Below, piece after piece: positions 19,409-50,141 of a stretch of 64,000 bases of DNA (positions within the stretch are counted from its first letter, which is position 1; each line of letters opens with the position of its first letter). The notes below the pieces were generated by a model. It did not search any database, had not been told where the DNA came from, and saw nothing but the letters and a program-made list of their open reading frames with translations. The translations under genes and the position numbers were made by a program. Origin of the DNA: Escherichia phage AV123; the sequence record OR352953.1. One strand, written 5' to 3'.

Positions 19409-19452
19409 TATGTGTGTTTTTATTTGTCTTAGCATAAACAATAGGAGGTATT

Positions 19453-19754: not shown

Positions 19755-19788
19755 AGCCCCTAGAATCACTTCTAGGGGCTTTTGTTTG
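19755..19788. terminator. bidirectional terminator hairpin (AGCCCCTAGAA-TCAC-TTCTAGGGGCT + TTTGTTTG) at convergence of + and - gene blocks
   Basis: 11-bp perfect stem with T-run; lies between last + gene and first - gene. Confidence 0.6.
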
Positions 19789-19849
19789 CATTAGATAGGG
19801 AAACGTATTACTAAAATAAAAAGTGCGTTAGAATGCGTTACAGGAGGTT

Positions 19850-20107: not shown

Positions 20108-20125
20108 AATATTCTCCTATAAGAA

Positions 20126-20143
20126 AAGGGGCTTTCGCCCCTT
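20126..20143 (-). terminator. intergenic GC hairpin AAGGGGCTTTCGCCCCTT (terminator-like, TTCG tetraloop)
   Basis: same 18-mer recurs at 31411 and 44498. Confidence 0.5.
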
Positions 20144-20150
20144 GGTCAAG

Positions 20151-20963
20151 TTACTTAGTCAAATGATCTTCTATCATTTTTATGAAAGCAGGATTGCTAA
20201 AAGCATCTGCTGCCTTTTCTCTATAAACAAAGACTCCTCTATCTTCGTAAAGAAGAGTTTCTTCGTAATTAATTCCTGGGTTAACAACAATCATTTTTGT
20301 ACCCATAGTAAGTGCAGGGAATAATTCCCAATTAAAATTGATAACTTGGTTTGAACATCCTACTACAACAACCAAATCTTGCATGGTCAAAGTATCAAAC
20401 AAGTGAGCCATATCTGCATACAAAGGTGCAGCCTCACCAAAAAATACAACATTAGGCTTCACCCAGTTATAATCATCTATGTTTATACTATTGTAACCAA
20501 TGTCTACCAGTGTTTTGTAATCTCCAGGATGCATACGGTAAACTACTTCAGGGAGATACCCGTGCACGTGAATAACAGAATCCCTGTCCACACCTGCTCG
20601 CTCTAGTAGATCATCGACGTTTGTTGTCAAGTTTACTACTTGGTTAGGATATTCCTTAAACCACTTTGCTATTTGAATATGTGCAGCATTAGGTTGTACA
20701 TCTTTAAGCTCAACACGTCTTTTGTTATAAAATTCGTGTGTTTTGGCATATAAGTCCATACCGTTCTCGTCTACACCACCGACCACTGGAAGATCTGGAG
20801 ATGTTCTCACACGATAACCTGCTTGGAAAGCTCCAATATCGCAGACCTCTTCTAAGTCATATTCTTCCCATAAGGCACGACCACTATCTGTGTCTGTTCG
20901 GAACGTTCGAATCCCACTGTCTGCACTTAAACCTGCGCCACTAACAAAAATTACTCTTCGCAT
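20151..20963 (-). CDS. Sir2-family (sirtuin-like) NAD+-dependent protein (270 aa)
   Basis: GAGLSADSGIRTFR (cf. sirtuin GAGIS..SGIPDFR), TTNVDDL (cf. TQNIDGL), HVHG catalytic His, VVFFGE, VVVGCS; no CxxC zinc module seen. Confidence 0.7.
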   Translation of the reverse strand: MRRVIFVSGAGLSADSGIRTFRTDTDSGRALWEEYDLEEVCDIGAFQAGYRVRTSPDLPVVGGVDENGMDLYAKTHEFYNKRRVELKDVQPNAAHIQIAKWFKEYPNQVVNLTTNVDDLLERAGVDRDSVIHVHGYLPEVVYRMHPGDYKTLVDIGYNSINIDDYNWVKPNVVFFGEAAPLYADMAHLFDTLTMQDLVVVVGCSNQVINFNWELFPALTMGTKMIVVNPGINYEETLLYEDRGVFVYREKAADAFSNPAFIKMIEDHLTK

Positions 20964-20974
20964 TCAATATCCTC

Positions 20975-21520
20975 TTAGTAATCATCATCCCAAGAAGATG
21001 CGTCGTAACGCTCTTCCTCTTCGAAATCCCAATTAATTTCTACTCCAAAATCTAAAAACAATTTAACAATGTTTTCTGTAGAGTAGTATTTATCATAAGC
21101 ATTAGCTAGTTCCCAATACTTGTCACTCAATTTTTTATATTTAGGATCATTATAGTCATAATCTACTTTATAACCATAATCATACATCTCTTGTTCAGCT
21201 TTAAGCATAGCTTCTGGTGTAAGAAGATTAGGGAACGGACGATTTCTTTCTTTTAACTTAGAAGCAATCCAGTTTGCAACATTCGCCACTTCACCATCTC
21301 GATTATCACCTAAACAACTTGCATAATCTCCATCTTCGTAAGTGCCTAAATCCCCACTAACTTCATGTACAATAGACGAATACGATCCACACGTTTCACA
21401 ATCTGAAAAAGTGTCTACTGTTGTAATATCAATAGATAAAACTGGTAAAGCCATAGCTTCTTTCACACAAGCCTCCTCATATAATAACATGTCATCAAAA
21501 CCCATATATCCTCCAGACAA
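20975..21520 (-). CDS. hypothetical acidic protein (181 aa)
   Basis: track ORF; D/E/Y-rich. Confidence 0.5.
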   Translation of the reverse strand: MSGGYMGFDDMLLYEEACVKEAMALPVLSIDITTVDTFSDCETCGSYSSIVHEVSGDLGTYEDGDYASCLGDNRDGEVANVANWIASKLKERNRPFPNLLTPEAMLKAEQEMYDYGYKVDYDYNDPKYKKLSDKYWELANAYDKYYSTENIVKLFLDFGVEINWDFEEEERYDASSWDDDY

Positions 21521-33749: not shown

Positions 33750-34619
33750 TTATTTTAATTTAAGTAAATACTTACCGTAGTCTGTTTTACTTAAAACCTC
33801 TCCAGAACTTTTTACAGAGTCTAAAGTAATCCATTCATTTTTAAAAGCAATCTCTTCCAGGCATGCAACCTTCATACCTTGTTGCTTTTCTATTGCATGA
33901 ACAAATTGAGATGCTTCCATAAGACTTTCATGTGTTCCTGTATCCAGCCAAGTGAAACCTCTTCCTAGTTTACAGACACGTAAAGCCTTTTCTTTCCAGT
34001 ACATATCATTTATATCTGTAATCTCTAACTCCCCTCTAGCAGAAGGTTTAACGCTTTTAGCTTTCTGTATAACAGAATTATCGTAAAAGTACAAGCCTGT
34101 GATTGCATAGTTGCTTTTTGGTGCTTTTGGTTTTTCTTCAATACTCACCACTGTACCTTCAGAATCAAACTCAACAACACCAAATCTTTCAGGATCATTT
34201 ACGTGATACCCAAAAATATTAGCTCCACCATTCTTCTCAATATGTTCTTTAGCAGAATCTAAAATGCTACCAAAACTCTGACCAAAGAATAAATTATCAC
34301 CTAGCACAAGTGCTACAGAATCTTCACCAATAAAGTTCTCACCAATAATAAACGCTTCTGCTAAACCTCTTGGGCTATCCTGTATTGCATACTGTAGGGA
34401 AATACCAAAAGAGGAACCATCACCTAGAAGATTTACAAAATTAATTTGATCTTCTGGTGTTGTAATTATTAGTATTTCCCTAATTCCAGAAAGCATTAGG
34501 ACAGAGAGTGGATAATAAATCATAGGCTTATCATAAATTGGTAATAGTTGTTTACTAACCCCTTTAGTAACTGGGTAAAGTCTTGTTCCACTACCACCTG
34601 CTAAGATAATACCTTTCAT
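33750..34619 (-). CDS. rmlA: glucose-1-phosphate thymidylyltransferase
   Basis: [19 protein letters not shown]-terminal signature. Confidence 0.85.
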
Positions 34620-34627
34620 ACTCCTCC

Positions 34628-35617
34628 TTAAACTTTATTTTCCCACCACTCTTTGTTATCTACATACCAATCAATGGTTGAATAAAGTTTTTCTTCAAAT
34701 GTGCCTTTAGCTTTCCACCCTAATTCCTTTTCAATCTTATAAGGATTCACTTCATATCTTAGATCATGTCCAGGTCTATCTGTAACCATCTCAATTAGGC
34801 TACAAGCATCTGTTTCAGATGGATACACCGCATCCATATAATCACAAATCATATAGATTACATCAATATTAGTTCTAGGGTTTCTGCTCCCAATATTATA
34901 TGTTTCTCCAGATTTGCCTTTAGTTACTACTAGGTGTAATGCTTCTGCGTGATCGTCAACGTATAACCAGTCTCTTACTTGAAGACCATTGCCATAAACA
35001 GGGATTGGTTTATTCATCAAGATATTTGTTATCGTTTTAGGTATTAGTTTTTCTGGATGATGATATGCTCCAAAATTATTTGAACAATTTGTTATAACTG
35101 TCGGAATACCATAAGTACGATGCCACGCTCTTACCAAATGATCGCTTGCTGCCTTAGATGCAGCATATGGACTACTTGGCTTATAAGGATTCTGTTCTGT
35201 AAACGGATAATCCCCTTCTTCCATATCACCATATACTTCATCTGTTGAAATATGATGGAACATTTTAAGATTTGATTTATCTCCCATTAAACGAACAGCT
35301 TCTAGGAGATTAAATGTCCCAACAATATTTGAATTTATAAAAACACTCGGTGATGCTATTGAATTATCTACGTGACTTTCTGCTGCAAGATGCATTATAT
35401 AATCTGGATTAACATCTGCCACAATCTTAGCAGTTAACTGCGCATTTGTCAAGTCAACACGACAAAACTTTACATTGGGTGTTTCTGATAAATTTCTAGG
35501 GTCTGAAGCGTAACCCCATTTATCTATAACGTAAATATCATTTTTAGTATTTTTAGCCAGGAAACGAACTACCGCACTTCCAATAAAGCCTAAACCACCT
35601 GTTACTAAGTATTTCAT
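34628..35617 (-). CDS. rmlB: dTDP-glucose 4,6-dehydratase
   Basis: [20 protein letters not shown]-binding motif; SDR-type layout. Confidence 0.85.
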
Positions 35618-36496: not shown

Positions 36497-36683
36497 ACTT
36501 GGCTACACCATTAACTATGATATGACCGCAAGACATAACTCCTAGCCAATGATCACCATTCTTTTTTAAACGTTTGCCGTAAACATCACAGAAACCATTC
36601 TGTAATTCGGAAGCCTCGTAAGAGGCTCCCTTTTCGAAAACGTCTTTGAAGTCAGAAATTAATCCAACACAAAGTAGTTTCAT
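36465..36683 (-). CDS. hypothetical protein (72 aa)
   Basis: track ORF. Confidence 0.45.
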   Translation of the reverse strand: MKLLCVGLISDFKDVFEKGASYEASELQNGFCDVYGKRLKKNGDHWLGVMSCGHIIVNGVAKFEIIKGEKDD

Positions 36684-37768
36684 TAAAAGTCTAACTCCTC
36701 GTCATCACTTACATCTTTATTTGCTGAATTCAGTTTGTAAGCTGTAATTTGGATCTCCTGTGCTGCTGCTTGAATTTGATCTGGGTTTAACCAAACATCC
36801 ATCCAAGGCAGTGGACTTTTCTTCGGTGCACGGAATTTGTGTTTCATTTTCAGTCTGCGATAGATAGGTGCAGCATTGAAGTAAACCCAAAGTTTGAACA
36901 ACTCTGCGTTACCACCAACGATAACCCTTCCTTCACTAAACAGATAGTCACACCAATCTTCCTCTTGTCCAACTACCGTGTCAAGAATTTCTGTCAGAAC
37001 GTCGATATTATCTTCGTATACTTTTCTCCAAACAGGATCTTTCAGCAGTGCATCAATAATAGCATAATCCATTTTAACGTGCAATAGTTCATCCAACATA
37101 ATTTTTTGAATGAGTTTAGCTGCACCTACAAACAATTGCTGCTCTGCTAAGGCAAATGTTGCAGCAAAAGAGGAGATGAACTGAATACCTTCCAGACCGA
37201 TAAGTGCAATCATTCCTTTCAGGATCAGTAGACGAAGGTTATCATCCTTCTCAATCAGACCTAGAGCATATTTATGTCCTGCCTCTGCCAGATCACTCAT
37301 TATCTCTTCAACTATACCCATCCTCTGGAAGATTCTTTCATTCTCCATGATCTGATCGATAACTTCATTTGGATTAGGGATACACTGACGAATAATTTCA
37401 GAATATGTTAAAGCGTGTAAAACTTCCATTTCTGATTGCTTCATCATCATTGCACATGCTTCGTTGTTGCTTAAAAATGGTGCAAACAAAGTGATGATTG
37501 ATTTAGCAAGTGAATCATTTTCCCATTGGAAAGATAGGTTTTTGATCATAACATCATAGTTGCTTTTAGAACAAGCTACGAAATCTTTTCGTGTCTGATC
37601 TAAGTTTACTTCGTTTTCATCCCAATCTTGCTGTTTTTGTAGTTTGTACAGACGATGCATTTCTGGGTATGTTACGTTAATAGAATCAAAAATACCTAAC
37701 TGTTCGCCCAAAAATACAGGGTAGAAACCTTCTTTGTAAGTGTCGTTGTATAAATTAATTGCTGCCAT
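36683..37768 (-). CDS. nrdB: ribonucleotide reductase class Ia beta subunit
   Basis: 361-aa ORF immediately downstream of nrdA in the same orientation; call rests on size and gene order, no motif checked by eye; no intron interruption. Confidence 0.8.
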   Translation of the reverse strand: MAAINLYNDTYKEGFYPVFLGEQLGIFDSINVTYPEMHRLYKLQKQQDWDENEVNLDQTRKDFVACSKSNYDVMIKNLSFQWENDSLAKSIITLFAPFLSNNEACAMMMKQSEMEVLHALTYSEIIRQCIPNPNEVIDQIMENERIFQRMGIVEEIMSDLAEAGHKYALGLIEKDDNLRLLILKGMIALIGLEGIQFISSFAATFALAEQQLFVGAAKLIQKIMLDELLHVKMDYAIIDALLKDPVWRKVYEDNIDVLTEILDTVVGQEEDWCDYLFSEGRVIVGGNAELFKLWVYFNAAPIYRRLKMKHKFRAPKKSPLPWMDVWLNPDQIQAAAQEIQITAYKLNSANKDVSDDEELDF

Positions 37769-38090
37769 TTAAATCCTCCACAATATCACACATTGCTTTT
37801 ATTGTATCAATGTGTTCTCTCTCCATACCATTCTCTATGTAAGCCTTCTCTAATGCGTTCCATACACTCTTTGTGAGTAGTACAGTAACCTCTCCCTCAT
37901 ATCTTGCCCTGGTTAAAGCATACCAGGTAGCTTCGGGATCATTGGAAGCCCATATTTCAACACTGGAAAATTGAAAACCTGCAATATGATGACAACACCA
38001 ATCGAATGTAAAATCTTTACTATCTACCAGTGTATAATTGCCCCAACGCCTTTGTGGTGTTGCCCCAGGTAATACAACTAATGTAGGCAT
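37755..38090 (-). CDS. hypothetical protein between nrdA and nrdB (111 aa)
   Basis: internal ATG of track ORF with AAGGAGG RBS. Confidence 0.5.
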   Translation of the reverse strand: MPTLVVLPGATPQRRWGNYTLVDSKDFTFDWCCHHIAGFQFSSVEIWASNDPEATWYALTRARYEGEVTVLLTKSVWNALEKAYIENGMEREHIDTIKAMCDIVEDLNGSN

Positions 38091-38131
38091 ATTCCTCCTT
38101 AAGAAATGGGGGACAAAGCCCCCTAGCTTCA

Positions 38132-40393
38132 TTACATCTTACAAGCCTCACAACCGGATTCTTCATCCTCTTGAGCGAGTGAGGTTGCTGATTTTGTTCG
38201 ACTATTTAGATAGTACAAAGATTTACCACCAAGTTTTGCAAACTGAAGGATATATTGCATTTCTGATTTAATGGATAAACGACCACCTTCCATCTTAGAA
38301 TAGTCAATCCACTTGTCACATGATGCACCTTGATCTAAGAATTTAGTCAACAGTCCATATGCTTCAGCCATATCTTTATCTGGCGTATCCCAAGCCGATT
38401 GGTAAATATCTTTTAGTTTATCGTAATCTGGCACAATAAACAAGACATTACCTTTTTGGCTTTGTTTATAAACTATAGTATCACGTACAGGATACACAGA
38501 GTTAGTCGTATTACTTACAAGACTACTGGACTCATTCGGAGCAATAGCTGCTAATACACTATTTCGGATACCACCTTGTGCAATTATATCTTGTCGTAAA
38601 CCTTCCCAATCCATTTTAAGTTTAAAATTGCCAATATCGTCTACAGCTTTAGCGTAGGTATCAATAGGCAACCATCCTTCAGGCCATTTGGTTTTATGCA
38701 TCCATTCTGCATTACCTTTCTCTTTTGCCAAACGAAGAGAAGCTCTTGCTAACCAGTAATAATGTCTTTCTGCTAATTCGTGAATTAGTTTTTTGCCGTA
38801 AGGATCTGAATAAGTAACAAAATTACTTGCCAGATAATGTGCCAGGTTTGTAATACCTACACCGATAGACCTACGTGCTTTAGCAGTGATTTCGTTATGT
38901 TTAAACGGATACTGCATTGTTTCAATAACATTATCAATAGTTAGAACGGTATAATATGCAACATCTTCATATTCTTCTGGTGTAACACGACCAGCTACAA
39001 TAGAAGACAGGAAACATAATGCCAATTCTTGATCTTCTGTATTCTCACCTGTGAAAAGATCAGTCATACTGTGAAATGCTTTCGTAGGCAAGAAAATTTC
39101 TTGGCACAAGTTTGACTGATAAATAACATCCTTAAACGGAGTATGCTTATTAGCATTATCCGCAAAGAACATATAAATACGTCCTGTCTCTGCTCTTTGT
39201 GTAATAATTTCTGCCAGAAGATCTCGTGCTTTTACAAACTTCTTCTTAATTCGTTTGCGACTAACTTTTTCATATACTTCTTCAAACTCTTCCTCGCTTT
39301 TATAAAGCGCCTCATAGAGTTCTGGTGCTTCGTCATAACTAACTAGCATCCAATCTTTACCTTTTGCTGCACGGCGCAGGAAAGCATTGTTTACTACGAT
39401 AGAGTAATCAAGTTTATCTACTCGTTTTTCACTAACAGTAGTTGGGTTTTTCAAACGTACCAGATCTTCAAAATCAGGTTCTAATATTGTAAACGTTACT
39501 GTTGCACTTCCACCACGACTTGCTTGTTTTGATGCTCCAACACTTGTCTCCATCCATTTCAGATATGGTAAAAGACCACCGTGAACAATACGGTTGTTCT
39601 TAACACCTTGTCCTGTAGCACGGGTTTGGAGGTTAACACCAATACCTGCATTATTCAATGTATATTCATGAGCAAGATAGTTAGCAATTGCTAAAGATTC
39701 TGCTGTATCATCTGCTCTAAACAGACAACAAGAAGCACTACCTTTAATCTTAGTACGCAACGTTGTTAAATAAGGTGATGGTAAATTAATCTTAAGATCA
39801 CTTACGTAGGTATATAGACGTTTAATGTCTTCTACTCTGCGATCTTTTGGTTGGATTTCCATTACCTTCATTGCTACACCAATGAATAAAAATTGTGGTG
39901 ATTCAAAAACCACATCATTGATCGCATCTTTCACAAGATACTTATCAACCATCTGGCGCAGTACGGAATAACCATAAGTTAGGTTTTTATCATGATTGAT
40001 AATTTTACCAATCTCAATAATTTCTTCTTCTGTATAATTCATTTTCCCCCAATAGCCTTTACTTACAGACATATTGTAGAAATCCAGGAGGGAGGGGATA
40101 TTGTGATATCCCCCATGAGCCTGTTTATAGATCATACCAAGAAGTAACCGACCTGCCATATCACTATATGCCTGATCTTTCTTATCAATACATGCTGCTA
40201 TCATAGCTTTATGTAAATCACGAGTAGGCACACCGTCGTAACAACGTTTAACAGCTTCGAGTTCGATTTCAGACCAATTTAATTTACCAGCAGCAAACTC
40301 TGACCATTTACGAAGTTTTTCTGGATTAAATTCTTCTTTCTTGCCGTTTGTTTTTGTTACATAACGGATAGATTTGCTTAGATACTGAGTCAC
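38132..40393 (-). CDS. nrdA: ribonucleotide reductase class Ia alpha subunit (GTG start)
   Basis: 753-aa ORF upstream of nrdB, size typical of class Ia alpha subunit; call rests on size and gene order, no motif checked by eye. Confidence 0.85.
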   Translation of the reverse strand: MTQYLSKSIRYVTKTNGKKEEFNPEKLRKWSEFAAGKLNWSEIELEAVKRCYDGVPTRDLHKAMIAACIDKKDQAYSDMAGRLLLGMIYKQAHGGYHNIPSLLDFYNMSVSKGYWGKMNYTEEEIIEIGKIINHDKNLTYGYSVLRQMVDKYLVKDAINDVVFESPQFLFIGVAMKVMEIQPKDRRVEDIKRLYTYVSDLKINLPSPYLTTLRTKIKGSASCCLFRADDTAESLAIANYLAHEYTLNNAGIGVNLQTRATGQGVKNNRIVHGGLLPYLKWMETSVGASKQASRGGSATVTFTILEPDFEDLVRLKNPTTVSEKRVDKLDYSIVVNNAFLRRAAKGKDWMLVSYDEAPELYEALYKSEEEFEEVYEKVSRKRIKKKFVKARDLLAEIITQRAETGRIYMFFADNANKHTPFKDVIYQSNLCQEIFLPTKAFHSMTDLFTGENTEDQELALCFLSSIVAGRVTPEEYEDVAYYTVLTIDNVIETMQYPFKHNEITAKARRSIGVGITNLAHYLASNFVTYSDPYGKKLIHELAERHYYWLARASLRLAKEKGNAEWMHKTKWPEGWLPIDTYAKAVDDIGNFKLKMDWEGLRQDIIAQGGIRNSVLAAIAPNESSSLVSNTTNSVYPVRDTIVYKQSQKGNVLFIVPDYDKLKDIYQSAWDTPDKDMAEAYGLLTKFLDQGASCDKWIDYSKMEGGRLSIKSEMQYILQFAKLGGKSLYYLNSRTKSATSLAQEDEESGCEACKM

Positions 40394-40404
40394 TTCCTCT
40401 CCTA

Positions 40405-40653
40405 TTAATTGTGCATGTTTAGAACATCTACATCATAACCGCCACGCATCTCATTATATAAGCCATTTGCGTATAGAAAACCTTCAAAATGATCTATACC
40501 TTCAAAACCTTTTGCCTTTGCTTTGCGGTCTGCTTCTTGTCTTTTTGGGGATAATCTTTTAGATGTATCAAGGATAACTGTTACATTGCAACCTAATGTT
40601 TCATCAAAATAGACTTCAATTTCACAGCCTTCATATTTATTACTTTCTGTCAT
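40405..40653 (-). CDS. hypothetical protein (82 aa)
   Basis: ATG (MTESNKYEG) with GAGAGG RBS; track ORF begins at upstream TTG. Confidence 0.45.
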   Translation of the reverse strand: MTESNKYEGCEIEVYFDETLGCNVTVILDTSKRLSPKRQEADRKAKAKGFEGIDHFEGFLYANGLYNEMRGGYDVDVLNMHN

Positions 40654-40665
40654 TTGGCCTCTCAA

Positions 40666-41076
40666 TTAGAATTCAGAATCATCATCTCGTGATGGATCAT
40701 GTTCATTTCCGAAGTCTTCCATTTTGATATGAGAGCTACCCCAACCTGTAAAATCTTCTTCTCCAAAGTGCAAAATATCTACACCTTGATAGATTCGCTT
40801 ATATTTATAGTCTTGTCGAACTGGGAAAGTATACAATGTAGTATTTGCAAACACCACACGTCGATTGTTGTTACTACGAATATTAACACCACGTTCTACT
40901 GTATAATGTCCATCGGTAGACATACCAAGCATTACTAATGCTGCTCTCAATGTAGTGTTATGATACTCGTGAGGAATTTTTCCTCCGTGCTTTTTAGCCA
41001 TTTCTTTCCAGATCGGTGTAGCCTTAATGGTAGACATACTTACGGTCGCCCAAATGGTTGTATTAATTAGTGACAT
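40666..41076 (-). CDS. hypothetical protein (136 aa)
   Basis: track ORF. Confidence 0.5.
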   Translation of the reverse strand: MSLINTTIWATVSMSTIKATPIWKEMAKKHGGKIPHEYHNTTLRAALVMLGMSTDGHYTVERGVNIRSNNNRRVVFANTTLYTFPVRQDYKYKRIYQGVDILHFGEEDFTGWGSSHIKMEDFGNEHDPSRDDDSEF

Positions 41077-41173
41077 AAATTCTCCTTCTCTCTTTTAAGG
41101 AGAGCATAGCTCTCCTAACGTTAGCCTATACTACACGAATCTCAATTAAAAGTCAACTATAATTTTAAGTTGA

Positions 41174-42145
41174 TCACCATTTTGTATGGTTAGTCAAAAG
41201 TTGACGATGTTGAATCCAACCACAGAAGTTTCCACTCCACAAACGATGTTTACGATCCATATGTGTAATACCTTCTTCCCAAGAAGTAGGGAACGGAGGA
41301 ATATTAATACCACCTTTCTGTTGTTTTAATCCTGACAAATCCATTTCTTTCATTGGTGTTGCCTGGTGTTCAAACGGAGATGCATGTACCTTCTGTCCAG
41401 ACAGCAAACGAGAATAGATATCCAATGCTTTATCTTTAGTATCATTCAATTTACGATAACTTACCTGAGCGCAACAAGAAGCTGAGATAGCTTTTGCTTC
41501 ATCTTCTGTCAACATTTTCTCGTTGGAGAAGGTTTCACCCAAGAAATAACGGATCATACCAGTTTCTGGATCTCGATCACGATTAACGTAAGGTGTATGC
41601 CATTCCCCTGGGAAAAGAAGATATGGTTCAGAAGATTCATACAATTTTTTAATTTCTTTAGCAAGAGCCTCAATAGTAGGATCTGCATCAGCATCTACGC
41701 GCAACCACAAGAAGTTTTCTAGCTCTGTAGTGGTTACTACAGTCTTCATACGCTGGAATGGTTCTAGTAGGCGGTTTGCAACCTGTTTATGATAACCAGC
41801 AAGGGCAAACTCTTCTGCAAAACGTGCAGCACTTAGCGCAGCCAAGTCCCACCATTCTTTTGCAGTGTAACCTGCATCAATCAGGGCATCGTGATCTGTG
41901 CCTTTATCTTGCATACCTGGTTGGTTAGCACCAAAACGATAAGGACGTGCTGGAGATTGCCGTACCATTTCAATTAGAGTTTTAACAGGGATAGCTCGAC
42001 TTGATGCGGCATTACGAGAAAACAAACGATGCGTCATCAATTCAGAGTGAATGATTCGAGGATATTCAAGTTCAAAGGTAACAATATCCTTACCTTCAGA
42101 TGTTTGAGAGTGTGCAATAATTTTTGCTGAAATAGAATTTGTCAT
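41174..42145 (-). CDS. thyX: flavin-dependent thymidylate synthase
   Basis: THRLFSRNAASSRA matches ThyX RHRxxxxxxxS signature region. Confidence 0.65.
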   Translation of the reverse strand: MTNSISAKIIAHSQTSEGKDIVTFELEYPRIIHSELMTHRLFSRNAASSRAIPVKTLIEMVRQSPARPYRFGANQPGMQDKGTDHDALIDAGYTAKEWWDLAALSAARFAEEFALAGYHKQVANRLLEPFQRMKTVVTTTELENFLWLRVDADADPTIEALAKEIKKLYESSEPYLLFPGEWHTPYVNRDRDPETGMIRYFLGETFSNEKMLTEDEAKAISASCCAQVSYRKLNDTKDKALDIYSRLLSGQKVHASPFEHQATPMKEMDLSGLKQQKGGINIPPFPTSWEEGITHMDRKHRLWSGNFCGWIQHRQLLTNHTKW

Positions 42146-42154
42146 TATTTCTCC

Positions 42155-42745
42155 TTAAGGTAGTAAAATACTTTCAATTTCTTCCCACTGATTATCTAAA
42201 CCAGTGATAATTACATTAGGAAGTTTCTTTAACTCTTCCAAGTATGGATCTTCGTAAATAGTGTTGAAATATATTTTCAACGTTTCATCTGGAAATAGGA
42301 CAAGATTTTCAGCCCTATCGTCAATAGTTACGTCGCAAGGTAATAAGTATTTTTCTTTTGTTGCGAAAAAGCCATTACCAGATGTTCTACTAAAGTCCAC
42401 TTTATCTAAAGATCGTGTTACGTGTCTATATTTAGAACTAAGGTGTCCACCCTTAGTGTGGCTTGCTATAGATATATTAGCTCCATTTGCAATTATACGA
42501 TGAACAACATCTGTACTATTAGGTACTACTCCCATAGTATCATATAGATGTTGGTTATCCCAAAAAGAGTAAGGATCTACACCAAATTGCTTTTTAAAAT
42601 CAGGAAAATATTTCGTAATATCATAATGCACAGTCTTTTGTGTCTTATCAAACTTGATATTAGATCTACTTACCGCATTTAACCAACTCAACCATTCTAC
42701 ATCGGCAGGGGCTATTACTAAATCCCAATCACATACTAGACGCAT
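42155..42745 (-). CDS. HAD-superfamily 5'(3')-deoxyribonucleotidase-like protein, tentative
   Basis: internal ATG with CAGGAG RBS; N-terminal DxD (CDWDLV) and C-terminal TIDDR motifs. Confidence 0.35.
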   Translation of the reverse strand: MRLVCDWDLVIAPADVEWLSWLNAVSRSNIKFDKTQKTVHYDITKYFPDFKKQFGVDPYSFWDNQHLYDTMGVVPNSTDVVHRIIANGANISIASHTKGGHLSSKYRHVTRSLDKVDFSRTSGNGFFATKEKYLLPCDVTIDDRAENLVLFPDETLKIYFNTIYEDPYLEELKKLPNVIITGLDNQWEEIESILLP

Positions 42746-43292
42746 TATTTCTCCTGTTATAACATTTTCTACACATTGTTTCGTAAATGTCTTCTCCTCC
42801 AATAACAATCTGTTCTTTAGAGTCGATAAGTCTAGCATTGAAAATAGCTTTTCTTCCACATTTACAAATGCTTTTCAATTCTGTAATTGAATCTGCTATG
42901 GCTAATAACCGTTCAGAACCTTCAAACAATTCTGTAGCAAAATCTGTTTTAAGCCCATAACAGAATACAGGAATATCGTAATTATCTACCACATCTCCAA
43001 GAATGTCAACCATATCTTTAGTTAGGAATTGTGATTCGTCCACAAATACTGCATCTACTGGATTTTCTTTAAGTTGTGTATAAATTTCCAGCATATCTTC
43101 TTTTGTTTTAACTGGTTTTGCTTCCTCTTTAATACCTATCCTAGAAGCAATAGCACAACCAGATCTGGTATCTAAAGCTGAAGTTAAAAGAAGAACTTTC
43201 ATATTTCTTTCTTTATAGTTCCAAGCTGTTTGTAGCAGATGTGTGCTTTTACCACTGTTCATCGGACTATATCGGAAATAAAGTTTAGCCAT
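42729..43292 (-). CDS. tdk: thymidine kinase
   Basis: SPMNSGKST P-loop and C-terminal CxxC zinc motif. Confidence 0.85.
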   Translation of the reverse strand: MAKLYFRYSPMNSGKSTHLLQTAWNYKERNMKVLLLTSALDTRSGCAIASRIGIKEEAKPVKTKEDMLEIYTQLKENPVDAVFVDESQFLTKDMVDILGDVVDNYDIPVFCYGLKTDFATELFEGSERLLAIADSITELKSICKCGRKAIFNARLIDSKEQIVIGGEDIYETMCRKCYNRRNNASSM

Positions 43293-43337
43293 ATTTTCTC
43301 CTCTAACGCTCCCATTTGTGGGAGCGATAATACTTTA

Positions 43338-43913
43338 TTATTTCTCTTCGTCAAGAAGAATTTTTACTATTTGTTTTCTTCGCTTACTTACTGTACTTTC
43401 TGGTGAAATTCCGCGCTTCGTTAGCCAATTTTTATCCTTTTTAGACTGGCATAAAGCTATCGCTTCCTTCTCCGCTTTTGCTTCCCTGAATGTCATATCG
43501 TGCTTGTCAGCATAAGCCAGGATAGCGTTACACTGCTTACAAACTACACGCAGGTCGTCTTCTGTTACGTACAATAAGCGTAAAACAAAACTTGGAATAT
43601 CTTCATAACAGGTTAATGTACCTGCTGCATTAATATGGTCTACTTGAAAGTCTTTCATACCTCCTGTATGTCCACACAATTCACATTTACAATTCCAAAC
43701 CTGTTTCGGTTTGCCTGTTTTCTTATCTAAGACTATATTTCCATCTTTATCCAACCTATCCGCTTTAAATCGTACAGATTGGATCTTTTTTATCTTATTC
43801 GGGTGTCTCACCCATGCTTTCCTTAAGCAACCCCTTAAATATGTATAAAAGGCTGCTTGAGTTTTCCAAGGTGTTCCATCTCCCCAAATAACTTTAGGTT
43901 CTTTATTTTCCAA
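43338..43913 (-). CDS. HNH-family endonuclease (possible free-standing homing endonuclease)
   Basis: CELCGH ... DHI ... CKQCN spacing typical of HNH nuclease. Confidence 0.5.
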   Translation of the reverse strand: MENKEPKVIWGDGTPWKTQAAFYTYLRGCLRKAWVRHPNKIKKIQSVRFKADRLDKDGNIVLDKKTGKPKQVWNCKCELCGHTGGMKDFQVDHINAAGTLTCYEDIPSFVLRLLYVTEDDLRVVCKQCNAILAYADKHDMTFREAKAEKEAIALCQSKKDKNWLTKRGISPESTVSKRRKQIVKILLDEEK

Positions 43914-44097
43914 TAGTGCTCACCTTTTTAGCTACATAATCTCCTGGTGGAATGTTATATTTAAAGAAAAGCATACGGTCTAAACCAGCCTTACACATGT
44001 TTTCTGGGATTGTGATTGTATATAAGAGTTTATCTCCACGTTTATTGTATATTTTATATACTTCACCCTCTCCGTATTGTTTACCGTGAGAAGCCAT
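43903..44097 (-). CDS. hypothetical protein (64 aa)
   Basis: track ORF. Confidence 0.4.
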   Translation of the reverse strand: MASHGKQYGEGEVYKIYNKRGDKLLYTITIPENMCKAGLDRMLFFKYNIPPGDYVAKKVSTIGK

Positions 44098-44482
44098 CTA
44101 CGCTCTCCTTCAATGTTTCAATAGCATCTGCTGCTTCAATATACTTACCTTTGTACATTGCTTTTAAAGCCTTACGAACAAGATCATCGTCTGTGTATAA
44201 ATCAATTAGCTGATTAGCTAACTCAATTTTTACAGGATTTTTTAAGTTAGGGTAGGCTTCATACAACATATTGTAATACTTATCACTTAATTCTTTTTCA
44301 ATATGAATAACGTGAATCGCTTTGTTTAGGTTGATCACACGATCACCTTTGTTTCGACAAGCATACTTAGCTAACTTAGTGAAACAAGGAGTTGCACCAA
44401 TTAGATATGCAAGTTCCAAAGGTTGCATACGCATACGTTTGTAGTGATCACCATCAATTTGAATATCCAGTGCTGTAGTCAT
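44081..44482 (-). CDS. hypothetical protein (133 aa)
   Basis: track ORF; GGAGG RBS. Confidence 0.55.
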   Translation of the reverse strand: MTTALDIQIDGDHYKRMRMQPLELAYLIGATPCFTKLAKYACRNKGDRVINLNKAIHVIHIEKELSDKYYNMLYEAYPNLKNPVKIELANQLIDLYTDDDLVRKALKAMYKGKYIEAADAIETLKESVDGFSR

Positions 44483-44497
44483 AAATCCTCCAAAAAT

Positions 44498-44520
44498 AAA
44501 GGGGCTTTCGCCCCTTTTTT
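44498..44520 (-). terminator. intergenic GC hairpin AAAGGGGCTTTCGCCCCTTTTTT (terminator-like)
   Basis: third copy of the same hairpin; T-runs on both sides. Confidence 0.55.
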
Positions 44521-44521
44521 A

Positions 44522-45484
44522 TTAAATTCCAATAACAGTGTTTACACGCTTCTCTTTGCTACGCAAATTAACACGTCCACGAGACAGGCTATTACATGAT
44601 GTGCATCTTAGCACTTGGAATGTACTAACCGCTGTTGTGTAAACCTTACCAGGAACAACTTCAAGGTGCTCTTTACCGCAACGAGGACAACGAAGTTTTT
44701 CATCGTCATAGAATGCAGATACGTTAGGATGTTGTGGAATCCATGCACGAAGTTTGATGTAAAGATCTCTAAGAGAAACAACATCACCATCATTGTATGT
44801 TTGCATACGGAAGAAGGCATGTCTATCTCCTTCACAACATGCTTTCCACAAAGGAAAACCTTCATTGTCAAGTTTAAAGTTTTCTGTATCAAAATACAAA
44901 CACATTTCTTTAAGCGCATTAGAAGGTAGTGCAAACTGCTTCTTAGCTGCCTTGAGTGTATCAATTACAACATAATGTGATGGTGGCTCCATACCGTGAA
45001 AAGCAAAACGTTGGTTAATATAAGCCTTATCAAACTTAATACCGTTGTGCGCGATCACAATATCTGCATCGTCAAGCAAGTGCCAGAGATCTTGACATAA
45101 TTCCCAATCATCTGTATGATCTATGTCAAACAAAGGGTAATTGCTAAGGTTCTTACCTTCTACTTCCCCTGTTTCTAAATCAGCAGATGAATAGGAAAGC
45201 AAGTAACCTCGACGAATAACTTGTTCAGGTGCAATAAAGGCTTTGAAACGTGAGAAGCTATACACAATCTCCGGTGCTGTCTCTACGTCAATAATTTTAA
45301 TTACTGGCCCACCTTTATCTTGCGGAGCACCACGATGTGGTGAATTTACACGAGCTAAGTAATCATTTACTGTGCTCTTCTTAGTAGAACTTCCCAACAC
45401 CTCTTGTGCAATCTTACGCGAAGAATAACCTTGTGCTTTCATAGATACAATCAAGGCTTTCTGTTCGTCTGTTAATTTACTCAA
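44522..45484 (-). CDS. DnaQ-like (DEDD) 3'-5' exonuclease with N-terminal HTH and C-terminal zinc ribbon
   Basis: IDVETAPE (Exo I), AHNGIKFD (Exo II), CPRCG/CTSCN. Confidence 0.55.
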   Translation of the reverse strand: MSKLTDEQKALIVSMKAQGYSSRKIAQEVLGSSTKKSTVNDYLARVNSPHRGAPQDKGGPVIKIIDVETAPEIVYSFSRFKAFIAPEQVIRRGYLLSYSSADLETGEVEGKNLSNYPLFDIDHTDDWELCQDLWHLLDDADIVIAHNGIKFDKAYINQRFAFHGMEPPSHYVVIDTLKAAKKQFALPSNALKEMCLYFDTENFKLDNEGFPLWKACCEGDRHAFFRMQTYNDGDVVSLRDLYIKLRAWIPQHPNVSAFYDDEKLRCPRCGKEHLEVVPGKVYTTAVSTFQVLRCTSCNSLSRGRVNLRSKEKRVNTVIGI

Positions 45485-46515
45485 TGTTCCTCCTGCTCTG
45501 AAATATATGCTTGTAGCATACTTTCAAAAGTTGTTTCATCATTCGCCCAACGTTTCATATATACCAACTGAAAAATTGTCTCTATCCATTCATCAGTTGT
45601 CATTTCTACTTCTTCACCATCCCAAGAAGTAAATTTAACGCCATCTGGGAACCATTCATAATACTGATCTTTAACTGTCTGAAAAAGTTCAGCTTGTGTT
45701 TTACATTTGGAAATAAGATTAAAGCAAGTAATATCTCCAAACTTAACATCGAAATCTTGGTAAGGTCGAATACTATCTGTCTTATCACCCATTAGCATTT
45801 GATAAGCTAACCAGTAACTACCCCAACCCTTAACTTCTTTTTTCTTACCTTTTTCTACGATCCAGATATCACCGATAGATTCATCAATCAGAATAACACA
45901 AGGATTTTTATAAACACCATCCTCTTTATAAAAGTTAAAGAGTAAACTTGGTGTATGTAAGCTATCTTTGTCGATAGATGCTACAATATGAGAAAACTTA
46001 CCAGTTTCCTTGTAGGCTTTATACCCTGCATATCCATAGATTTCTAAAGCATCATCTGCCTCAATACCAGTAACAACGTCACCGTTATGTTTTTCAACTA
46101 GATAATCTTTAGTATCTGATAATTGGATTGGTCTTAAATCTGATCGTTCTGATTTATATTCTTTTGGCATTTTGAAAGAATGCCGGAAGGTTTTTCCTAC
46201 CCCGATGACACCGCAATACTTTTGAAGTTTTAGGTGATCCACCATCTGGGTTATTTTTGTCTTTGCAGCTTGAAACGTAAAAGAAATATTCTCTGGGACT
46301 ATTTGAACATCTTTTATTTCAAAATCTTCCTTGGAGAACAACTTCTTACCAGCAGCTTCGCGTTGCGCGTTAAGTGCTCCTAACCATCCTCCAATATTTT
46401 TTGAAGATTTACCCCAAAAATCTGTTCTTGTTTCAAACTCTTTTACATTACCGGAAGCCTTGTGTACAGCGTGGATTTTTCTTTGTTCTAAAGCTGAAGA
46501 CGCTTGGAACGCCAC
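45481..46515 (-). CDS. rnh: RNase H / FEN-family 5'-3' exonuclease
   Basis: GIEADDALE and LMGDKTDSIRP resemble T4 RNase H EADD and GDKKDN motifs. Confidence 0.55.
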   Translation of the reverse strand: MAFQASSALEQRKIHAVHKASGNVKEFETRTDFWGKSSKNIGGWLGALNAQREAAGKKLFSKEDFEIKDVQIVPENISFTFQAAKTKITQMVDHLKLQKYCGVIGVGKTFRHSFKMPKEYKSERSDLRPIQLSDTKDYLVEKHNGDVVTGIEADDALEIYGYAGYKAYKETGKFSHIVASIDKDSLHTPSLLFNFYKEDGVYKNPCVILIDESIGDIWIVEKGKKKEVKGWGSYWLAYQMLMGDKTDSIRPYQDFDVKFGDITCFNLISKCKTQAELFQTVKDQYYEWFPDGVKFTSWDGEEVEMTTDEWIETIFQLVYMKRWANDETTFESMLQAYISEQEEH

Positions 46516-46607
46516 TTGATCGTAGTCTATTGCAAGAATTGTGTTCTCGTCAACATATTTGTGCAGGTCTTCCGGTTGGATTAAAATGTAACCGCTAATA
46601 TTACCTC

Positions 46608-46820
46608 CTATTCATCATCTGAACTCTCTGTTGAGAATGTTCGTGTGTAGGGACACTGACGACTTGCAGAAACCTCTATAACCTTGTCGTACATACCGTT
46701 AGAGTAAAAACAGTATTTTGTACTTCCAGAAACTTGTTCTCCAGAATTAATTAAAGTTATTTGACCAGCATAAGAATAAGAACTTATTACTAAAAGTAAA
46801 CCGACAAGAAGTTTTTTCAT
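46608..46820 (-). CDS. small secreted protein with signal peptide (70 aa)
   Basis: MKKLLVGLLLVISSYSYA signal-like N-terminus; AAGGAG RBS. Confidence 0.55.
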   Translation of the reverse strand: MKKLLVGLLLVISSYSYAGQITLINSGEQVSGSTKYCFYSNGMYDKVIEVSASRQCPYTRTFSTESSDDE

Positions 46821-46895
46821 TGGTGTGTCTCCTTAAAAGCCCACCTAACTAAGTAGGTAGGCATATTAACACATATTAAATTAGTAAGTCAAGTA

Positions 46896-47780
46896 TTATT
46901 TTTGAATAGTTGACTTGATAAGGTCTTGCATAATACCACGGATTTCATTAAAGCACAGAAGGACAGATGCTTCAAAAGATCCTTCTTCGTCGTTAAAGTA
47001 TTTAGGGAATTTAATACCACTCAACTTAAATTCTTTATCAACAATAAAGTTAACGAAACCGTCATATTCCAGGCCAATGGCAACAACGTGCTTACCATCT
47101 TCCATAAGTTCTACTGCACGAGATTCGTAAAGGGATTCTTTACTCCATACAACCACACCTTCAGAATCTTCAAGTTTAATATAATTACCAAGGGTCAGTC
47201 GTTCAGCCTCATGTTCTTCTAAGATGGTATCGAAACCTTTAATAATGGCTTCTTCGTGTACACTAAACGGCAGAACTGGGAAAGTACCCAACACCTCACG
47301 AAGAAACACAGCAATATCTTCACTAATTTTCTTAGTACCATTAAGAACGTAGGTAATACTGTTTTCAGTGTCTACAACAACATAGTTATAGAAATCATCT
47401 GCCTCTGTTTCTGGGAGCAGAGAAAACACGATATCAGCCTCAATTGCTTTTTTACTTTCTTTGTCCAAGAAGAATTCTTTAGTAGGGTTTGCAGCAATAA
47501 ACTCTTGTTCCATCTCTTGAAGTTTTTCATTAAGAATGCGTTTAACTTTTTTCTTGTTAACTTTCTTAACAGATTGCCCTACTTTAATAACCTCTAAACC
47601 AGAGAACACTTTTACATAGGAACCATCATCTTCAAAACGAACAAGACCAATGGTATGTGCTTGTTGACCCTGTGCCACAACAAAATCCAGCGGTTTGTCT
47701 GTTACTGTGTTCAGTGCGGAAATAGACAGACCATCACCAGAAATCAGGGTTACGCAAGATTTGAAATTTTTAGCAAACAT
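46896..47780 (-). CDS. rdgC: RdgC-like recombination-associated protein
   Basis: MFAKNFK start and LREVLGTFPVLPFS align with E. coli RdgC (MLWFKNL ... LRKSLGSLPVVPLS); GAGGAG RBS. Confidence 0.55.
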   Translation of the reverse strand: MFAKNFKSCVTLISGDGLSISALNTVTDKPLDFVVAQGQQAHTIGLVRFEDDGSYVKVFSGLEVIKVGQSVKKVNKKKVKRILNEKLQEMEQEFIAANPTKEFFLDKESKKAIEADIVFSLLPETEADDFYNYVVVDTENSITYVLNGTKKISEDIAVFLREVLGTFPVLPFSVHEEAIIKGFDTILEEHEAERLTLGNYIKLEDSEGVVVWSKESLYESRAVELMEDGKHVVAIGLEYDGFVNFIVDKEFKLSGIKFPKYFNDEEGSFEASVLLCFNEIRGIMQDLIKSTIQK

Positions 47781-47790
47781 AGTTTTCTCC

Positions 47791-48069
47791 TCAAATAACA
47801 ACTACAAAATATTTTACACCATCATATTCGACAATATGATCAGGATATTTAAATCCTTTATAAGATTTACCAAACAGACTAACAGCCTCATTAGCTTTGT
47901 TTTGCGGATTACTCAGCCACTGTTCTTCTGTGTAAAACTTAAACTCTGTTCTCTTACCTTCTTTTTCTAAACCAACAATTTCCTGTGTGATATCTTCAAT
48001 ACCTGCATTCTTCAAGGATTTGATTACCTGACGCAAACCGTGTTTAAAGATATCTTCTGCTGTTAACAT
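47791..48069 (-). CDS. hypothetical protein (92 aa)
   Basis: track ORF. Confidence 0.5.
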   Translation of the reverse strand: MLTAEDIFKHGLRQVIKSLKNAGIEDITQEIVGLEKEGKRTEFKFYTEEQWLSNPQNKANEAVSLFGKSYKGFKYPDHIVEYDGVKYFVVVI

Positions 48070-48082
48070 AATACCTCCAATA

Positions 48083-48098
48083 AGCCCCCGAAGGGGCT
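48083..48098 (-). terminator. intergenic GC hairpin AGCCCC-CGAA-GGGGCT
   Basis: hairpin between two minus-strand genes. Confidence 0.4.
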
Positions 48099-48105
48099 TT
48101 ATTTC

Positions 48106-48828
48106 TTAAGCAATGATTGCTGCGATATTAGGTTTAACAAAGGTAGATGGTTTCATAATTTTACCTTTATCATCAAAGAATACGTACACCTTTTGAACTT
48201 CGTTATATACAGCATGTACCCCAGTATAAGAACCTTCTGCACGATCTTTGCTTCGCATCTCGATAGCATCGCACTCTTTTTCAAGAGCTTCAATAATATC
48301 CTTAGTTTCCCAAATAGCCAGGAGTTGCTTCTTGGTAGGATACTTGGACTCATTGCTATTCAACACTTCACGCATAACCTTCTTCTCGTTATAAACAGAA
48401 CGCACCAAAGTATCTCGTGCCATACGGGTAAGTGTAAGAGACATTAAGGCAAATTGCAAGTCATTTTCTACCATTTTATCAAATTCAATGATAACATCGT
48501 AAATGTTTTCTGCCAGAACATCCCCTGTCGGCATTTCCAGAGCTTTATCAACACCTTCTTTACCAAAGAACATAAATGCCAGGTAGGAGGCTACCACAAA
48601 AATATCTGCTGCTGCATCAAGTAATTCAACGTGATCATTTTCCTGTGCTGCTGCTTGGAACTCTTTAAGTTCTTCTCGTACAAAAGAAAGTTGAGCTTCA
48701 AACATCTCTTGAGTAAATTCTGGAGTTACTCCACCACGTGCCTTAGCATTCCAAGCAACAATTTGATCGGCAGCTTTGATAAAGAAGCTATTGTCCACTT
48801 TTACTTGTTTGAAAAAATTCTCGATCAT
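48106..48828 (-). CDS. MazG-like nucleotide pyrophosphohydrolase, tentative
   Basis: REELKEF ... DHVELLDAAADIFVV resembles the MazG acidic EExxE...D metal-binding motif. Confidence 0.35.
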   Translation of the reverse strand: MIENFFKQVKVDNSFFIKAADQIVAWNAKARGGVTPEFTQEMFEAQLSFVREELKEFQAAAQENDHVELLDAAADIFVVASYLAFMFFGKEGVDKALEMPTGDVLAENIYDVIIEFDKMVENDLQFALMSLTLTRMARDTLVRSVYNEKKVMREVLNSNESKYPTKKQLLAIWETKDIIEALEKECDAIEMRSKDRAEGSYTGVHAVYNEVQKVYVFFDDKGKIMKPSTFVKPNIAAIIA

Positions 48829-48837
48829 TGTTTCTCC

Positions 48838-49017
48838 TTATTTAAAATATTGTTCTAACAAAACACTAATGCGAACTACCGATTCGCCCATATACGCCCC
48901 AGCACAGAGGAAAACAACAAATCTACAAAAATTGCAGTACCATTTGTCCACTGGAAACGAGGCTAACATTATAATTGCAATAGCAATTAACATCATAAGA
49001 ACTGTTACTAATACCAT
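48838..49017 (-). CDS. small membrane protein (59 aa)
   Basis: internal ATG with AAGAGG RBS; hydrophobic N-terminus. Confidence 0.4.
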   Translation of the reverse strand: MVLVTVLMMLIAIAIIMLASFPVDKWYCNFCRFVVFLCAGAYMGESVVRISVLLEQYFK

Positions 49018-49025
49018 ATTACCTC

Positions 49026-50141
49026 TTACTCTGCTGGTTCCCAAGTACCTGGAATCATCTTACGTACACGTACCCCAACAGGCTTAGTAGGAATACCTTC
49101 GTCTGAAAATTCTTCGTACTCAATTTCAACAAATTGACCAATAAGTGTCAAAGCATTTTCTTCTTTACGATAGTTAATGGTTTCATCTGAATCCTTACGC
49201 ATCAGGAATTCGACTACTTTACCATTTTCCATCTCTCCTGTCAATACCCCGTCACCATTTTTATCACGCTTTGCACTTACCACTTTAACTTCAAGCGTCT
49301 GCCGTGGTTTACGTTTAATAACATCATAAGAACGTTTATCAAACTCGTAAACACCTTGTGCGTTACGATACACCACACCTTCCGCTTTCTCACGTAGAGC
49401 TTTTGCATAGAAAGCATCAAACTGCTCTTGGTTTTCAATGTACTCTGTATGTACTACACAAATGAGTTCATCTAAACCCTTATCTTCAACAACTTCTTTT
49501 AGAGCAGCCAAAACTTGAACCCTCTTCTCAAATGGTACAGATGGCACGGGAACATCATATACATAGTATTTAAGAAGCGGAGTGTTAGCATTATGCTTTT
49601 TCCACGCACTATTAATTTGTTGAAGGCTAAGGATACCCAAACCAGCAAAAACTTCACCGTCAAGAGGATGACCAACCACTTCTTTAATGAAGGTTGGAAT
49701 TTCTTCCCAGTGAGGTGGGAGTTTATATACCTCTCCAGCTTTAGATAAACATTCACCTTGCATGTTAATCATTGAACGTAGACCATTCAATTTATATTGT
49801 GCATAACCTGGGAACAAAACACGATCAGCATAATCTTTATAATCCTGACATTTCATGGGTGTAGAAGGAACATGGTTTTCAGCTTCCTCTTTTGTTTTAT
49901 AATACCCATTCTTAAGTTGCTTTGTCCATTTGGCAAGAGCTTCTATTTCAGCTTGTTCTTCTGCTGTTGTTTCATTTGAGCGACCAATATTTTTAGGTTC
50001 TGCCGTATAAGATTTGCTAGTGATCTTTCCACCTAATTGACCATGAGCAACAGTTACAACACTACCTTCGGTATAGACTGACCACTGTCTAATTTTACCT
50101 GTAGAAGTTTTACCATATAATGTAGGATTAGTTTGTTTCAT
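49026..50141 (-). CDS. ATP-dependent DNA ligase (covalent nucleotidyltransferase)
   Basis: motif I KLNGLR (KxNG variant), motif IV EGVVYR, motif V KRK; internal ATG with GGAGG RBS. Confidence 0.6.
   Translation of the reverse strand: MKQTNPTLYGKTSTGKIRQWSVYTEGSVVTVAHGQLGGKITSKSYTAEPKNIGRSNETTAEEQAEIEALAKWTKQLKNGYYKTKEEAENHVPSTPMKCQDYKDYADRVLFPGYAQYKLNGLRSMINMQGECLSKAGEVYKLPPHWEEIPTFIKEVVGHPLDGEVFAGLGILSLQQINSAWKKHNANTPLLKYYVYDVPVPSVPFEKRVQVLAALKEVVEDKGLDELICVVHTEYIENQEQFDAFYAKALREKAEGVVYRNAQGVYEFDKRSYDVIKRKPRQTLEVKVVSAKRDKNGDGVLTGEMENGKVVEFLMRKDSDETINYRKEENALTLIGQFVEIEYEEFSDEGIPTKPVGVRVRKMIPGTWEPAE

Follow-up and report, generated by a model that had tools for sequence, protein, structure and literature searches.

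An HNH nuclease gene of phi92-like coliphages is an exonuclease-linked core gene, not a mobile element

Main

Escherichia phage AV123 (record OR352953.1) carries, within the 64,000-nucleotide (nt) stretch of its DNA analyzed here (the window), an open reading frame (ORF) at 43338-43913 that encodes a small HNH nuclease. The initial annotation took it for a free-standing homing endonuclease gene that sits in an intergenic slot beside the thymidine kinase gene tdk and drives its own spread between related phages. Here, we find that the gene, the orthologue of phi92 gp081, lacks the hallmarks of homing and is a fixed, single-copy, vertically inherited core gene under purifying selection, not a mobile one. 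Its protein family, PHROG 1985, has evolved in linkage with a FEN-like 5'-3' exonuclease in most of the lineages sampled. From this setting, and by comparison with known phage systems, we infer the substrate and biological role of gp081 in the Discussion.

Results

Over the region 42700-45500 the window shares 99.7% identity with Escherichia phages inny and ZYD and 99.2% with phi92, and by its sequence it is assigned to a phi92-like coliphage, a myovirus (Stephanstirmvirinae, Justusliebigvirus). The genes and features around the HNH gene are as follows.

42729..43292, minus strand: thymidine kinase gene tdk, the downstream neighbor, separated by a 45-nt gap from the HNH stop codon
43308..43325, no strand: 7-bp GC-rich hairpin GCTCCCA-TTTG-TGGGAGC in the gap that separates the HNH stop codon from the tdk ribosome-binding site, read from the sequence
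43338..43913, minus strand: HNH nuclease coding sequence (beta-beta-alpha-Me), 191 amino acids (aa), TTG start, orthologue of phi92 gp081, PHROG 1985
43903..44097, minus strand: 64-aa gp082-like ORF, PHROG 4903, no assigned function, overlapping the HNH start by 11 nt
44081..44482, minus strand: 133-aa gp083-like ORF, PHROG 10946, no assigned function, opening the overlapping trio gp083-gp082-gp081
44498..44517, no strand: GC hairpin resembling a terminator, T-run on each strand, located between gp083 and the DnaQ-like exonuclease gene, from a consensus scan only
44522..45484, minus strand: DnaQ-like 3'-5' exonuclease with an RNase_H_2 fold, phi92 gp084, used as the core-gene yardstick for presence counts
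45481..46515, minus strand: FEN-like 5'-3' exonuclease, 344 aa, PHROG 107, phi92 gp085

The HNH gene is thus the third and last of three overlapping genes that run from 44482 to 43338, and a GGTGAG ribosome-binding site can be read in the sequence 5 nt 5' of its start. Since it overlaps gp082 by 11 nt, gp082 in turn overlaps gp083, and a hairpin precedes the trio, the gene does not occupy an intergenic slot as first described; gp083-gp082-gp081 is a predicted operon-like unit 3' of the 44498-44517 hairpin. On the other side of the gene, the hairpin at 43308-43325 is not followed by a T-run on the coding strand and is absent from the terminator-scan list. A promoter scan returned 17 promoter-like sites against 16.3 in shuffled sequence, with no evidence of a private promoter for the HNH gene. 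One promoter-like site (TTGACG-16-TATTAT, 43354 to 43327) lies inside the 3' end of the HNH gene and faces tdk. Phapecoctavirus Mt1B1_P17 has no tdk at the matching position and its HNH gene is followed directly by an NT5C-like gene, and the indel at this locus is tdk, not the HNH gene. In RefSeq, phi92 gp081 is labeled 'HNH endonuclease', with the note 'predicted HNH endonuclease-type fold; conserved hypothetical protein', and gp081 is in this sense an ordinary, already annotated gene of an uncharacterized, exonuclease-linked HNH family.

The identification of the protein as an HNH nuclease holds up. The CxxC...DH...CxxC-N arrangement noted initially is present in the ORF as C77-x2-C80, D92-H93 (codons 43635-43640) and C125-x2-C128-N129 (43527-43541), and it is conserved in 36 close and 85 distant relatives. 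In the alignment of the 36, C77, C80, D92, H93 and N129 are invariant; among the 85, C77 and H93 are invariant and C80, D92, C125 and C128 are at least 90% conserved, and column 129, an invariant Asn in the close clade, is His in at least 90% of the members. The gp081-type protein has a beta-beta-alpha fold with the general-base His closing the first strand, the metal-ligand Asn/His on the helix, and two CxxC pairs of the zinc type. With motif, fold and catalytic His/Asn all retained, it is probably an active nuclease. The protein can be divided as follows.

43770..43886, minus strand: N-terminal helical region, residues 10-48, with helices 19-35 and 38-47 in the AlphaFold2 (AF2) model
43527..43685, minus strand: Zn-stabilized HNH core, residues 77-129
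43350..43442, minus strand: C-terminal helix-extended-helix, residues ~158-188, KDKNWLTKRGISPESTVSKRRKQIVKILL, with a SAP/LEM-like look

The HNH protein matches the PHROG 1985 profile at E=9e-66 and has 53 close homologues; the family as a whole comprises 1129 cluster representatives at 50% identity, and the 150 of these that were listed are all stand-alone proteins of 89-263 aa without domain fusions. No HNH-type model reaches its Pfam gathering score (HNH 16.0 against 21.4; HNH_5 15.5 against 27.5; Endonuclease_7 14.4 against 23.6), the homologues likewise remain below threshold in Pfam, and NCBIfam gives nothing above its cut-off. By these searches, PHROG 1985 falls outside the curated Pfam and NCBIfam models. 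The AF2 model (predicted local distance difference test score, pLDDT, 95.2) matches HNH nucleases, although the Foldseek match against PDB is limited to the local HNH core (E 0.097) and structural scores fail to tell HNH subfamilies apart; the better structural matches include the nicking enzymes GVE2 HNH and Gme HNH. Sequence and profile searches of PDB returned nothing significant and no endonuclease VII (endo VII) match. An AP2 domain, for which the initial annotation had suggested a search alongside HNH, was not detected, and neither were HNH_3, NUMOD/IENR, helix-turn-helix (HTH) or other Pfam DNA-binding domains in the HNH protein at E<=0.1. The N-terminal region holds family-specific conserved basic and aromatic residues (W10, W16, R27, G28, R31, W34, P38, K40 and R48) and presumably contacts DNA. 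For the C-terminal tail, Pfam searches with C-terminal fragments of the HNH protein gave no match to a SAP domain, and the helix-extended-helix region is missing in a short (~125 aa) PHROG 1985 subgroup; a SAP-like character is only weakly supported.

Several points could favor homing, in which the nuclease would cleave relatives without the gene at a specific site and repair would then copy the gene in. The protein belongs to the HNH nucleases and its catalytic motif is intact, homing endonuclease genes commonly adjoin nucleotide-metabolism and replication genes, and database annotators have labeled some PHROG 1985 members 'homing endonuclease'. Barth et al. list ICP1 'gp179' among HNH-3 homing endonuclease genes (PMC10448857 / PMC10055350), but it could not be confirmed that the same numbering applies to the ICP1 protein annotated 'previously GP179', and the Barth et al. 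supplement yielded nothing on gp179. The ICP1 'GP179' protein is without any Pfam match and is universal in ICP1.

The distribution of the gene points the other way. By tblastn, the HNH protein has 764 match places in 763 phage records, with a second copy in at most one record. Record counts for gp081 and gp084 are identical, with 55 at ≥95% identity and 78 at 60-80%, and therefore every Justusliebigvirus and Phapecoctavirus-type record has the HNH gene. The same holds in more distant groups: the ICP1 homologue gp179 occurs in 82 records at ≥95% identity, as does the gp176 exonuclease (also 82), and in Barbavirus the HNH homologue and the exonuclease are found in 115 and 115 records. The gene is present in 133/133 Stephanstirmvirinae, 82/82 ICP1 and 115/115 Barbavirus records, and a gene-less allele was seen in none of these 133 + 82 + 115 genomes. 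The presence/absence polymorphism in related phages that the initial annotation had proposed to look for is absent, the counts equaling those of the core gene gp084. Of the two signs that it had named as speaking against homing, universal presence with conserved neighbors is what we observe, whereas the other, a loss of the catalytic His-Asn pair, is not.

Divergence is likewise that of a resident gene. Between the window and Phapecoctavirus Mt1B1_P17, gp081 has 75% aa identity and a ratio of nonsynonymous to synonymous substitution rates (dN/dS) of 0.092, inside both ranges of its ten syntenic neighbors (53-88% aa identity, dN/dS 0.05-0.25). The GC content of the gene is 37.5%, against 37.0% for the window, and no paralogues of it occur within the window.

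The borders of the gene were tested by aligning window positions 36-52 kb to phages phi92 and VEcB. One colinear high-scoring segment pair (HSP) spans 38133-48854 at 99.1% identity and is unbroken across the HNH gene, where local identity is 98-99.6%. The alignment breaks only at 37786-38132 and 48855-49026, the nrdB/nrdA slot and the ligase slot, and flank identity dips to 94% at the nrdA end and to ~90% (against VEcB) in the adjoining ligase region; the HNH gene shows neither a breakpoint nor such a dip. The position between nrdA and nrdB is a classic one for homing endonucleases. In phi92 and VEcB this slot holds an unrelated 218-aa HNH gene (gp074/gp069, PHROG 953), which the window lacks. 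The window instead has there, at 37755-38132 on the minus strand, between nrdB (36683-37768) and nrdA (38132-40393), a 125-aa ORF of PHROG 17458 with no assigned function. At the ligase slot, VEcB has a 209-aa HNH gene (gp086, PHROG 374) and the window and phi92 have none. The variable HNH genes of the phage genus belong to PHROGs 953, 374 and 2255; those of the two slots (953 and 374) form a paralogous group of their own, unrelated to gp081, and BLASTP shows no relation between gp081 and the variable HNH genes of VEcB. The nrdB/nrdA and ligase slots show, as a positive control from within this phage group, how homing-endonuclease slots appear.

What the HNH gene does keep close to is the 5'-3' exonuclease gene. 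The exonuclease gene lies directly upstream of the HNH gene, overlapping it or 12 nt apart, in Pakpunavirus PAK_P1 and PaoP5, Barbavirus, and the Chaseviridae phage SA91KD, and 0.2-2.2 kb upstream in ICP1, Stephanstirmvirinae, VpV262 and three metagenomic contigs. In an IMG/VR sample it was found 0-2.2 kb upstream on the same strand in 74 of 79 loci and in 15 of 17 clusters (60% identity). This synteny is kept down to ~26% protein identity, which again speaks against homing. Between lineages, identities are similar for the two proteins (about 25-35% for the exonuclease and 26-35% for the HNH protein), and this parallel divergence fits long co-inheritance. In the one exonuclease-less lineage with long flanks that was examined, the HNH gene follows genes that, by eye, look like those for a RecB/Cas4-like nuclease, a primase, an ATPase and a single-stranded DNA-binding protein (SSB)-like product. 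Genes for tdk, NT5C, ThyX and NrdAB surround the HNH gene in several lineages.

Two further observations concern the partners themselves. The exonuclease gp085 (45481-46515) has no Pfam or NCBIfam match at E<=0.1, and a faint 5_3_exonuc_N match appears solely in a gp085 homologue from a metagenomic contig; we read PHROG 107 as a divergent, widely conserved FEN-like family. The short-form PHROG 1985 subgroup, found on IMG/VR contigs, comprises proteins of ~125-130 aa that stop right after the HNH helix, and its HNH gene overlaps a shorter exonuclease gene (224-240 aa).

In some phages, endo VII takes a comparable place. The rV5-like phage S127 BCL3 has the same module, with the exonuclease at 39% and the DnaQ-like exonuclease at 40% identity and with thyX and nrdA, and at 4639-5825, between its two exonuclease genes, it has a 209-aa protein annotated 'RNaseH' (no Pfam match) and then an endonuclease VII. 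The latter is bona fide, with a PF02945 score of 28.8 bits against the 23.6 required and a BLASTP match to T4 gp49 at 8.6e-10, and it served as the positive control for the PF02945 test. Homologues of the S127 BCL3 'RNaseH' protein or of its endo VII were found neither in the complete VEcB and PaoP5 genomes nor in the window, and VEcB carries no endo VII annotation. As far as checked, PHROG 1985 appears to be absent from rV5-like phages; gp081 homologues occur in 144 Escherichia phage records and gp084 homologues in 217, and the lower gp081 count is consistent with this absence. In the phiKMV-like phage KP34, endo VII closely follows the 5'-3' exonuclease (PMC3082699), and annotators of Chaseviridae have named a PHROG 1985 member 'endonuclease VII'. 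These arrangements suggest that a module of exonuclease and small endonuclease recurs in phages, and that PHROG 1985 may fill the endonuclease slot.

Other regions yielded observations of their own. The window has a tRNA cluster at 59145-62200 (plus strand) with 15 tRNA genes, in which a 430-nt ORF-free spacer separates tRNA-Gly from tRNA-Gln, and tRNA-Gln (61485-61559) and tRNA-Pro (61567-61642) are 7 nt apart. VEcB has between the latter two a 119-aa HNH gene, gp247, a homologue of PaoP5 Orf50 (37% identity, E 3e-11); its absence from the window suggests that this type of HNH gene may be dispensable in the genus. In the VEcB genome, outside the window, the regions 17814-21423 and 34063-35052 hold a split anaerobic reductase gene and a CapR/T5orf172 'endonuclease'. 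Annotation divides the anaerobic ribonucleotide reductase gene into several pieces with an ORF between them, and the gene may be interrupted by an intron or a homing endonuclease gene; the 329-aa 'endonuclease', with CapR and T5orf172 domains, is a putative homing endonuclease of the ICP1 type. Some public records have label problems. Four 'Campylobacter phage' records are 98.7% identical to the E. coli phage region and are probably mislabeled or contaminants, and phage ZYD is filed under Vequintavirus despite 99.7% identity to Justusliebigvirus phages. The records concerned ('Campylobacter phage' and ZYD) are MG065639, MG065645, MG065656, MG065689 and PQ110661.

Discussion

We propose, with a probability of about one half, that gp081 works as the endonuclease alongside the 5'-3' exonuclease on replication or recombination intermediates, as a single-copy, vertically inherited, zinc-stabilized HNH enzyme of the replication, recombination and nucleotide-metabolism module. 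In this proposal, D92, H93 and N129 would build a one-metal active site for nicking or cutting DNA, while the basic N-terminal helices and the SAP-like C-terminal helix-extension-helix would bind DNA without long sequence specificity. The substrate would be branched, nicked or recombination-intermediate DNA, perhaps host DNA too. Cuts would yield ends for resection by the 5'-3' exonuclease, and branches would be cleared ahead of packaging. The role would be comparable to that of T4 endonuclease VII, of T7 endonuclease I with gp6, or of the endo VII of phiKMV- and rV5-like phages. The roles of T4 endo VII and of T7 gp3 and gp6 are established phage biology.

The likeness to T4 endonuclease VII (gp49, PF02945) lies in the HNH superfamily, the four zinc Cys, the Asp-His...Cys-x-x-Cys-Asn metal site, and a small stand-alone protein encoded in a replication module near a 5'-3' exonuclease. 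Unlike endo VII, gp081 additionally carries a conserved helical domain at the N-terminus, a beta-hairpin insertion and a SAP-like C-terminal tail, and most PHROG 1985 members have His and not Asn as the last metal ligand. With T7 endonuclease I (gp3) and the exonuclease gp6, the pair would share a division of labor, with an endonuclease that attacks branched or host DNA and with resection by a FEN-like 5'-3' exonuclease, and both pairs are early or middle replication-module genes. However, T7 endonuclease I has a PD-(D/E)XK-like fold, entirely unlike HNH, and the likeness is functional only.

Several results weigh against this proposal. Membership of gp081 in the endo VII family is rejected by PF02945 (14.4 against 23.6 bits), and comparing the family alignment with T4 gp49 by hhalign yields a probability of 1% (E 0.05). 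Among the short-form loci, 5 of 22 have an endo VII-like gene with an N-terminal zinc ribbon 1-4 kb upstream, and this co-occurrence implies that the exonuclease-HNH pair may act outside junction resolution. No functional study of PHROG 1985 was found in the literature on phi92 gp081, ICP1 gp179, Chaseviridae endo VII or the Pakpunavirus HNH. Separately, strict complementarity between PHROG 1985 and endo VII was rejected because those five short-form loci carry both. A wider claim is correspondingly more tentative, and we put it forward as a possibility that we rate below even: that PHROG 1985 may be an unrecognized structure-specific (junction-resolving or debranching) HNH family with a SAP-like tail, which would replace endo VII or endo I in phi92-like, Phapecoctavirus, Pakpunavirus, ICP1, Barbavirus and Chaseviridae phages, be an obligate partner of the FEN-like 5'-3' exonuclease, and be at present wrongly annotated as a homing endonuclease, both in databases and in papers on ICP1.

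An alternative that we consider unlikely, yet plausible enough to be kept in mind, is host-DNA breakdown, in which the HNH protein would nick or cut the chromosome, the 5'-3' exonuclease would degrade it, and salvage enzymes (tdk, 5'-nucleotidase, ThyX and ribonucleotide reductase, RNR) would recycle the products. The tight and often translationally coupled linkage to the exonuclease suits it, as does the position of the gene amid tdk, NT5C, ThyX and NrdAB genes in several lineages. The T7 endonuclease gp3 and exonuclease gp6 do precisely this, and the separate endo VII of some short-form lineages suggests a role besides resolution. However, no modification-dependent or specificity domain was detected in the protein and so there is no evident sparing of phage DNA. 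Host-DNA breakdown is also compatible with action on replication intermediates, because T7 gp3 does both.

It is improbable that gp081 is a domesticated former homing endonuclease, now fixed and used for sequence-specific nicking or cutting in, for example, replication initiation or genome-end formation. HNH gene domestication has been discussed for phages (PMC10055350), and the nicking GVE2 HNH and Gme HNH among the better structural matches would suit such a role. However, the architecture and the exonuclease linkage are kept across very distant phages, which indicates an ancient dedicated function and not a recent capture, and the protein has no recognizable sequence-specific DNA-binding module.

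A terminase-associated packaging HNH, like HK97 gp74 or PaoP5 Orf50, is highly improbable. Although Pakpunavirus PaoP5 does need an HNH nuclease for packaging (PMC13083879), that nuclease is Orf50 (PMC12846349), a 141-aa protein encoded beside tRNAs and the terminase and unrelated to PHROG 1985, and PaoP5 has a separate PHROG 1985 member, Orf115, adjoining the exonuclease. In contrast to the terminase-associated HNH proteins (HK97 gp74, GVE2 HNH and PaoP5 Orf50), the gp081 gene lies away from the terminase, with ~21 kb between the HNH gene and the large terminase gene in VEcB, and the Orf50-like VEcB gp247 is missing from the window. PaoP5 thus has both kinds of HNH protein, and the two are unrelated.

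Active homing, to which we give almost no credence, is already largely refuted by distribution, and although gp081 resembles homing endonucleases (I-HmuI-type, AP2-HNH / IPA-HNH and T4 Mob-like) in its HNH motif, its small free-standing ORF and its position near nucleotide-metabolism genes, it differs from them in that it lacks paralogues, an AP2 or HNH_3 domain and any presence/absence polymorphism, and in its vertical inheritance and conserved synteny.

As far as the window is concerned, these findings chiefly correct the earlier reading: the gene is the core gene phi92 gp081 and not a mobile element, and the true homing-endonuclease slots of the phage group are at other positions and stand empty here. 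The exonuclease-linked HNH family is routinely labeled 'homing endonuclease', and it occurs in therapy-relevant and model phages (Pakpunavirus, ICP1 and phi92-like phages); the label can lead astray work on mobile elements and on the plasticity of phage genomes. Should PHROG 1985 prove to be the resolvase or debranching enzyme so far missing from these phages, it would close a gap in how they replicate and package their DNA, and it would add a new scaffold to the junction-processing nucleases.

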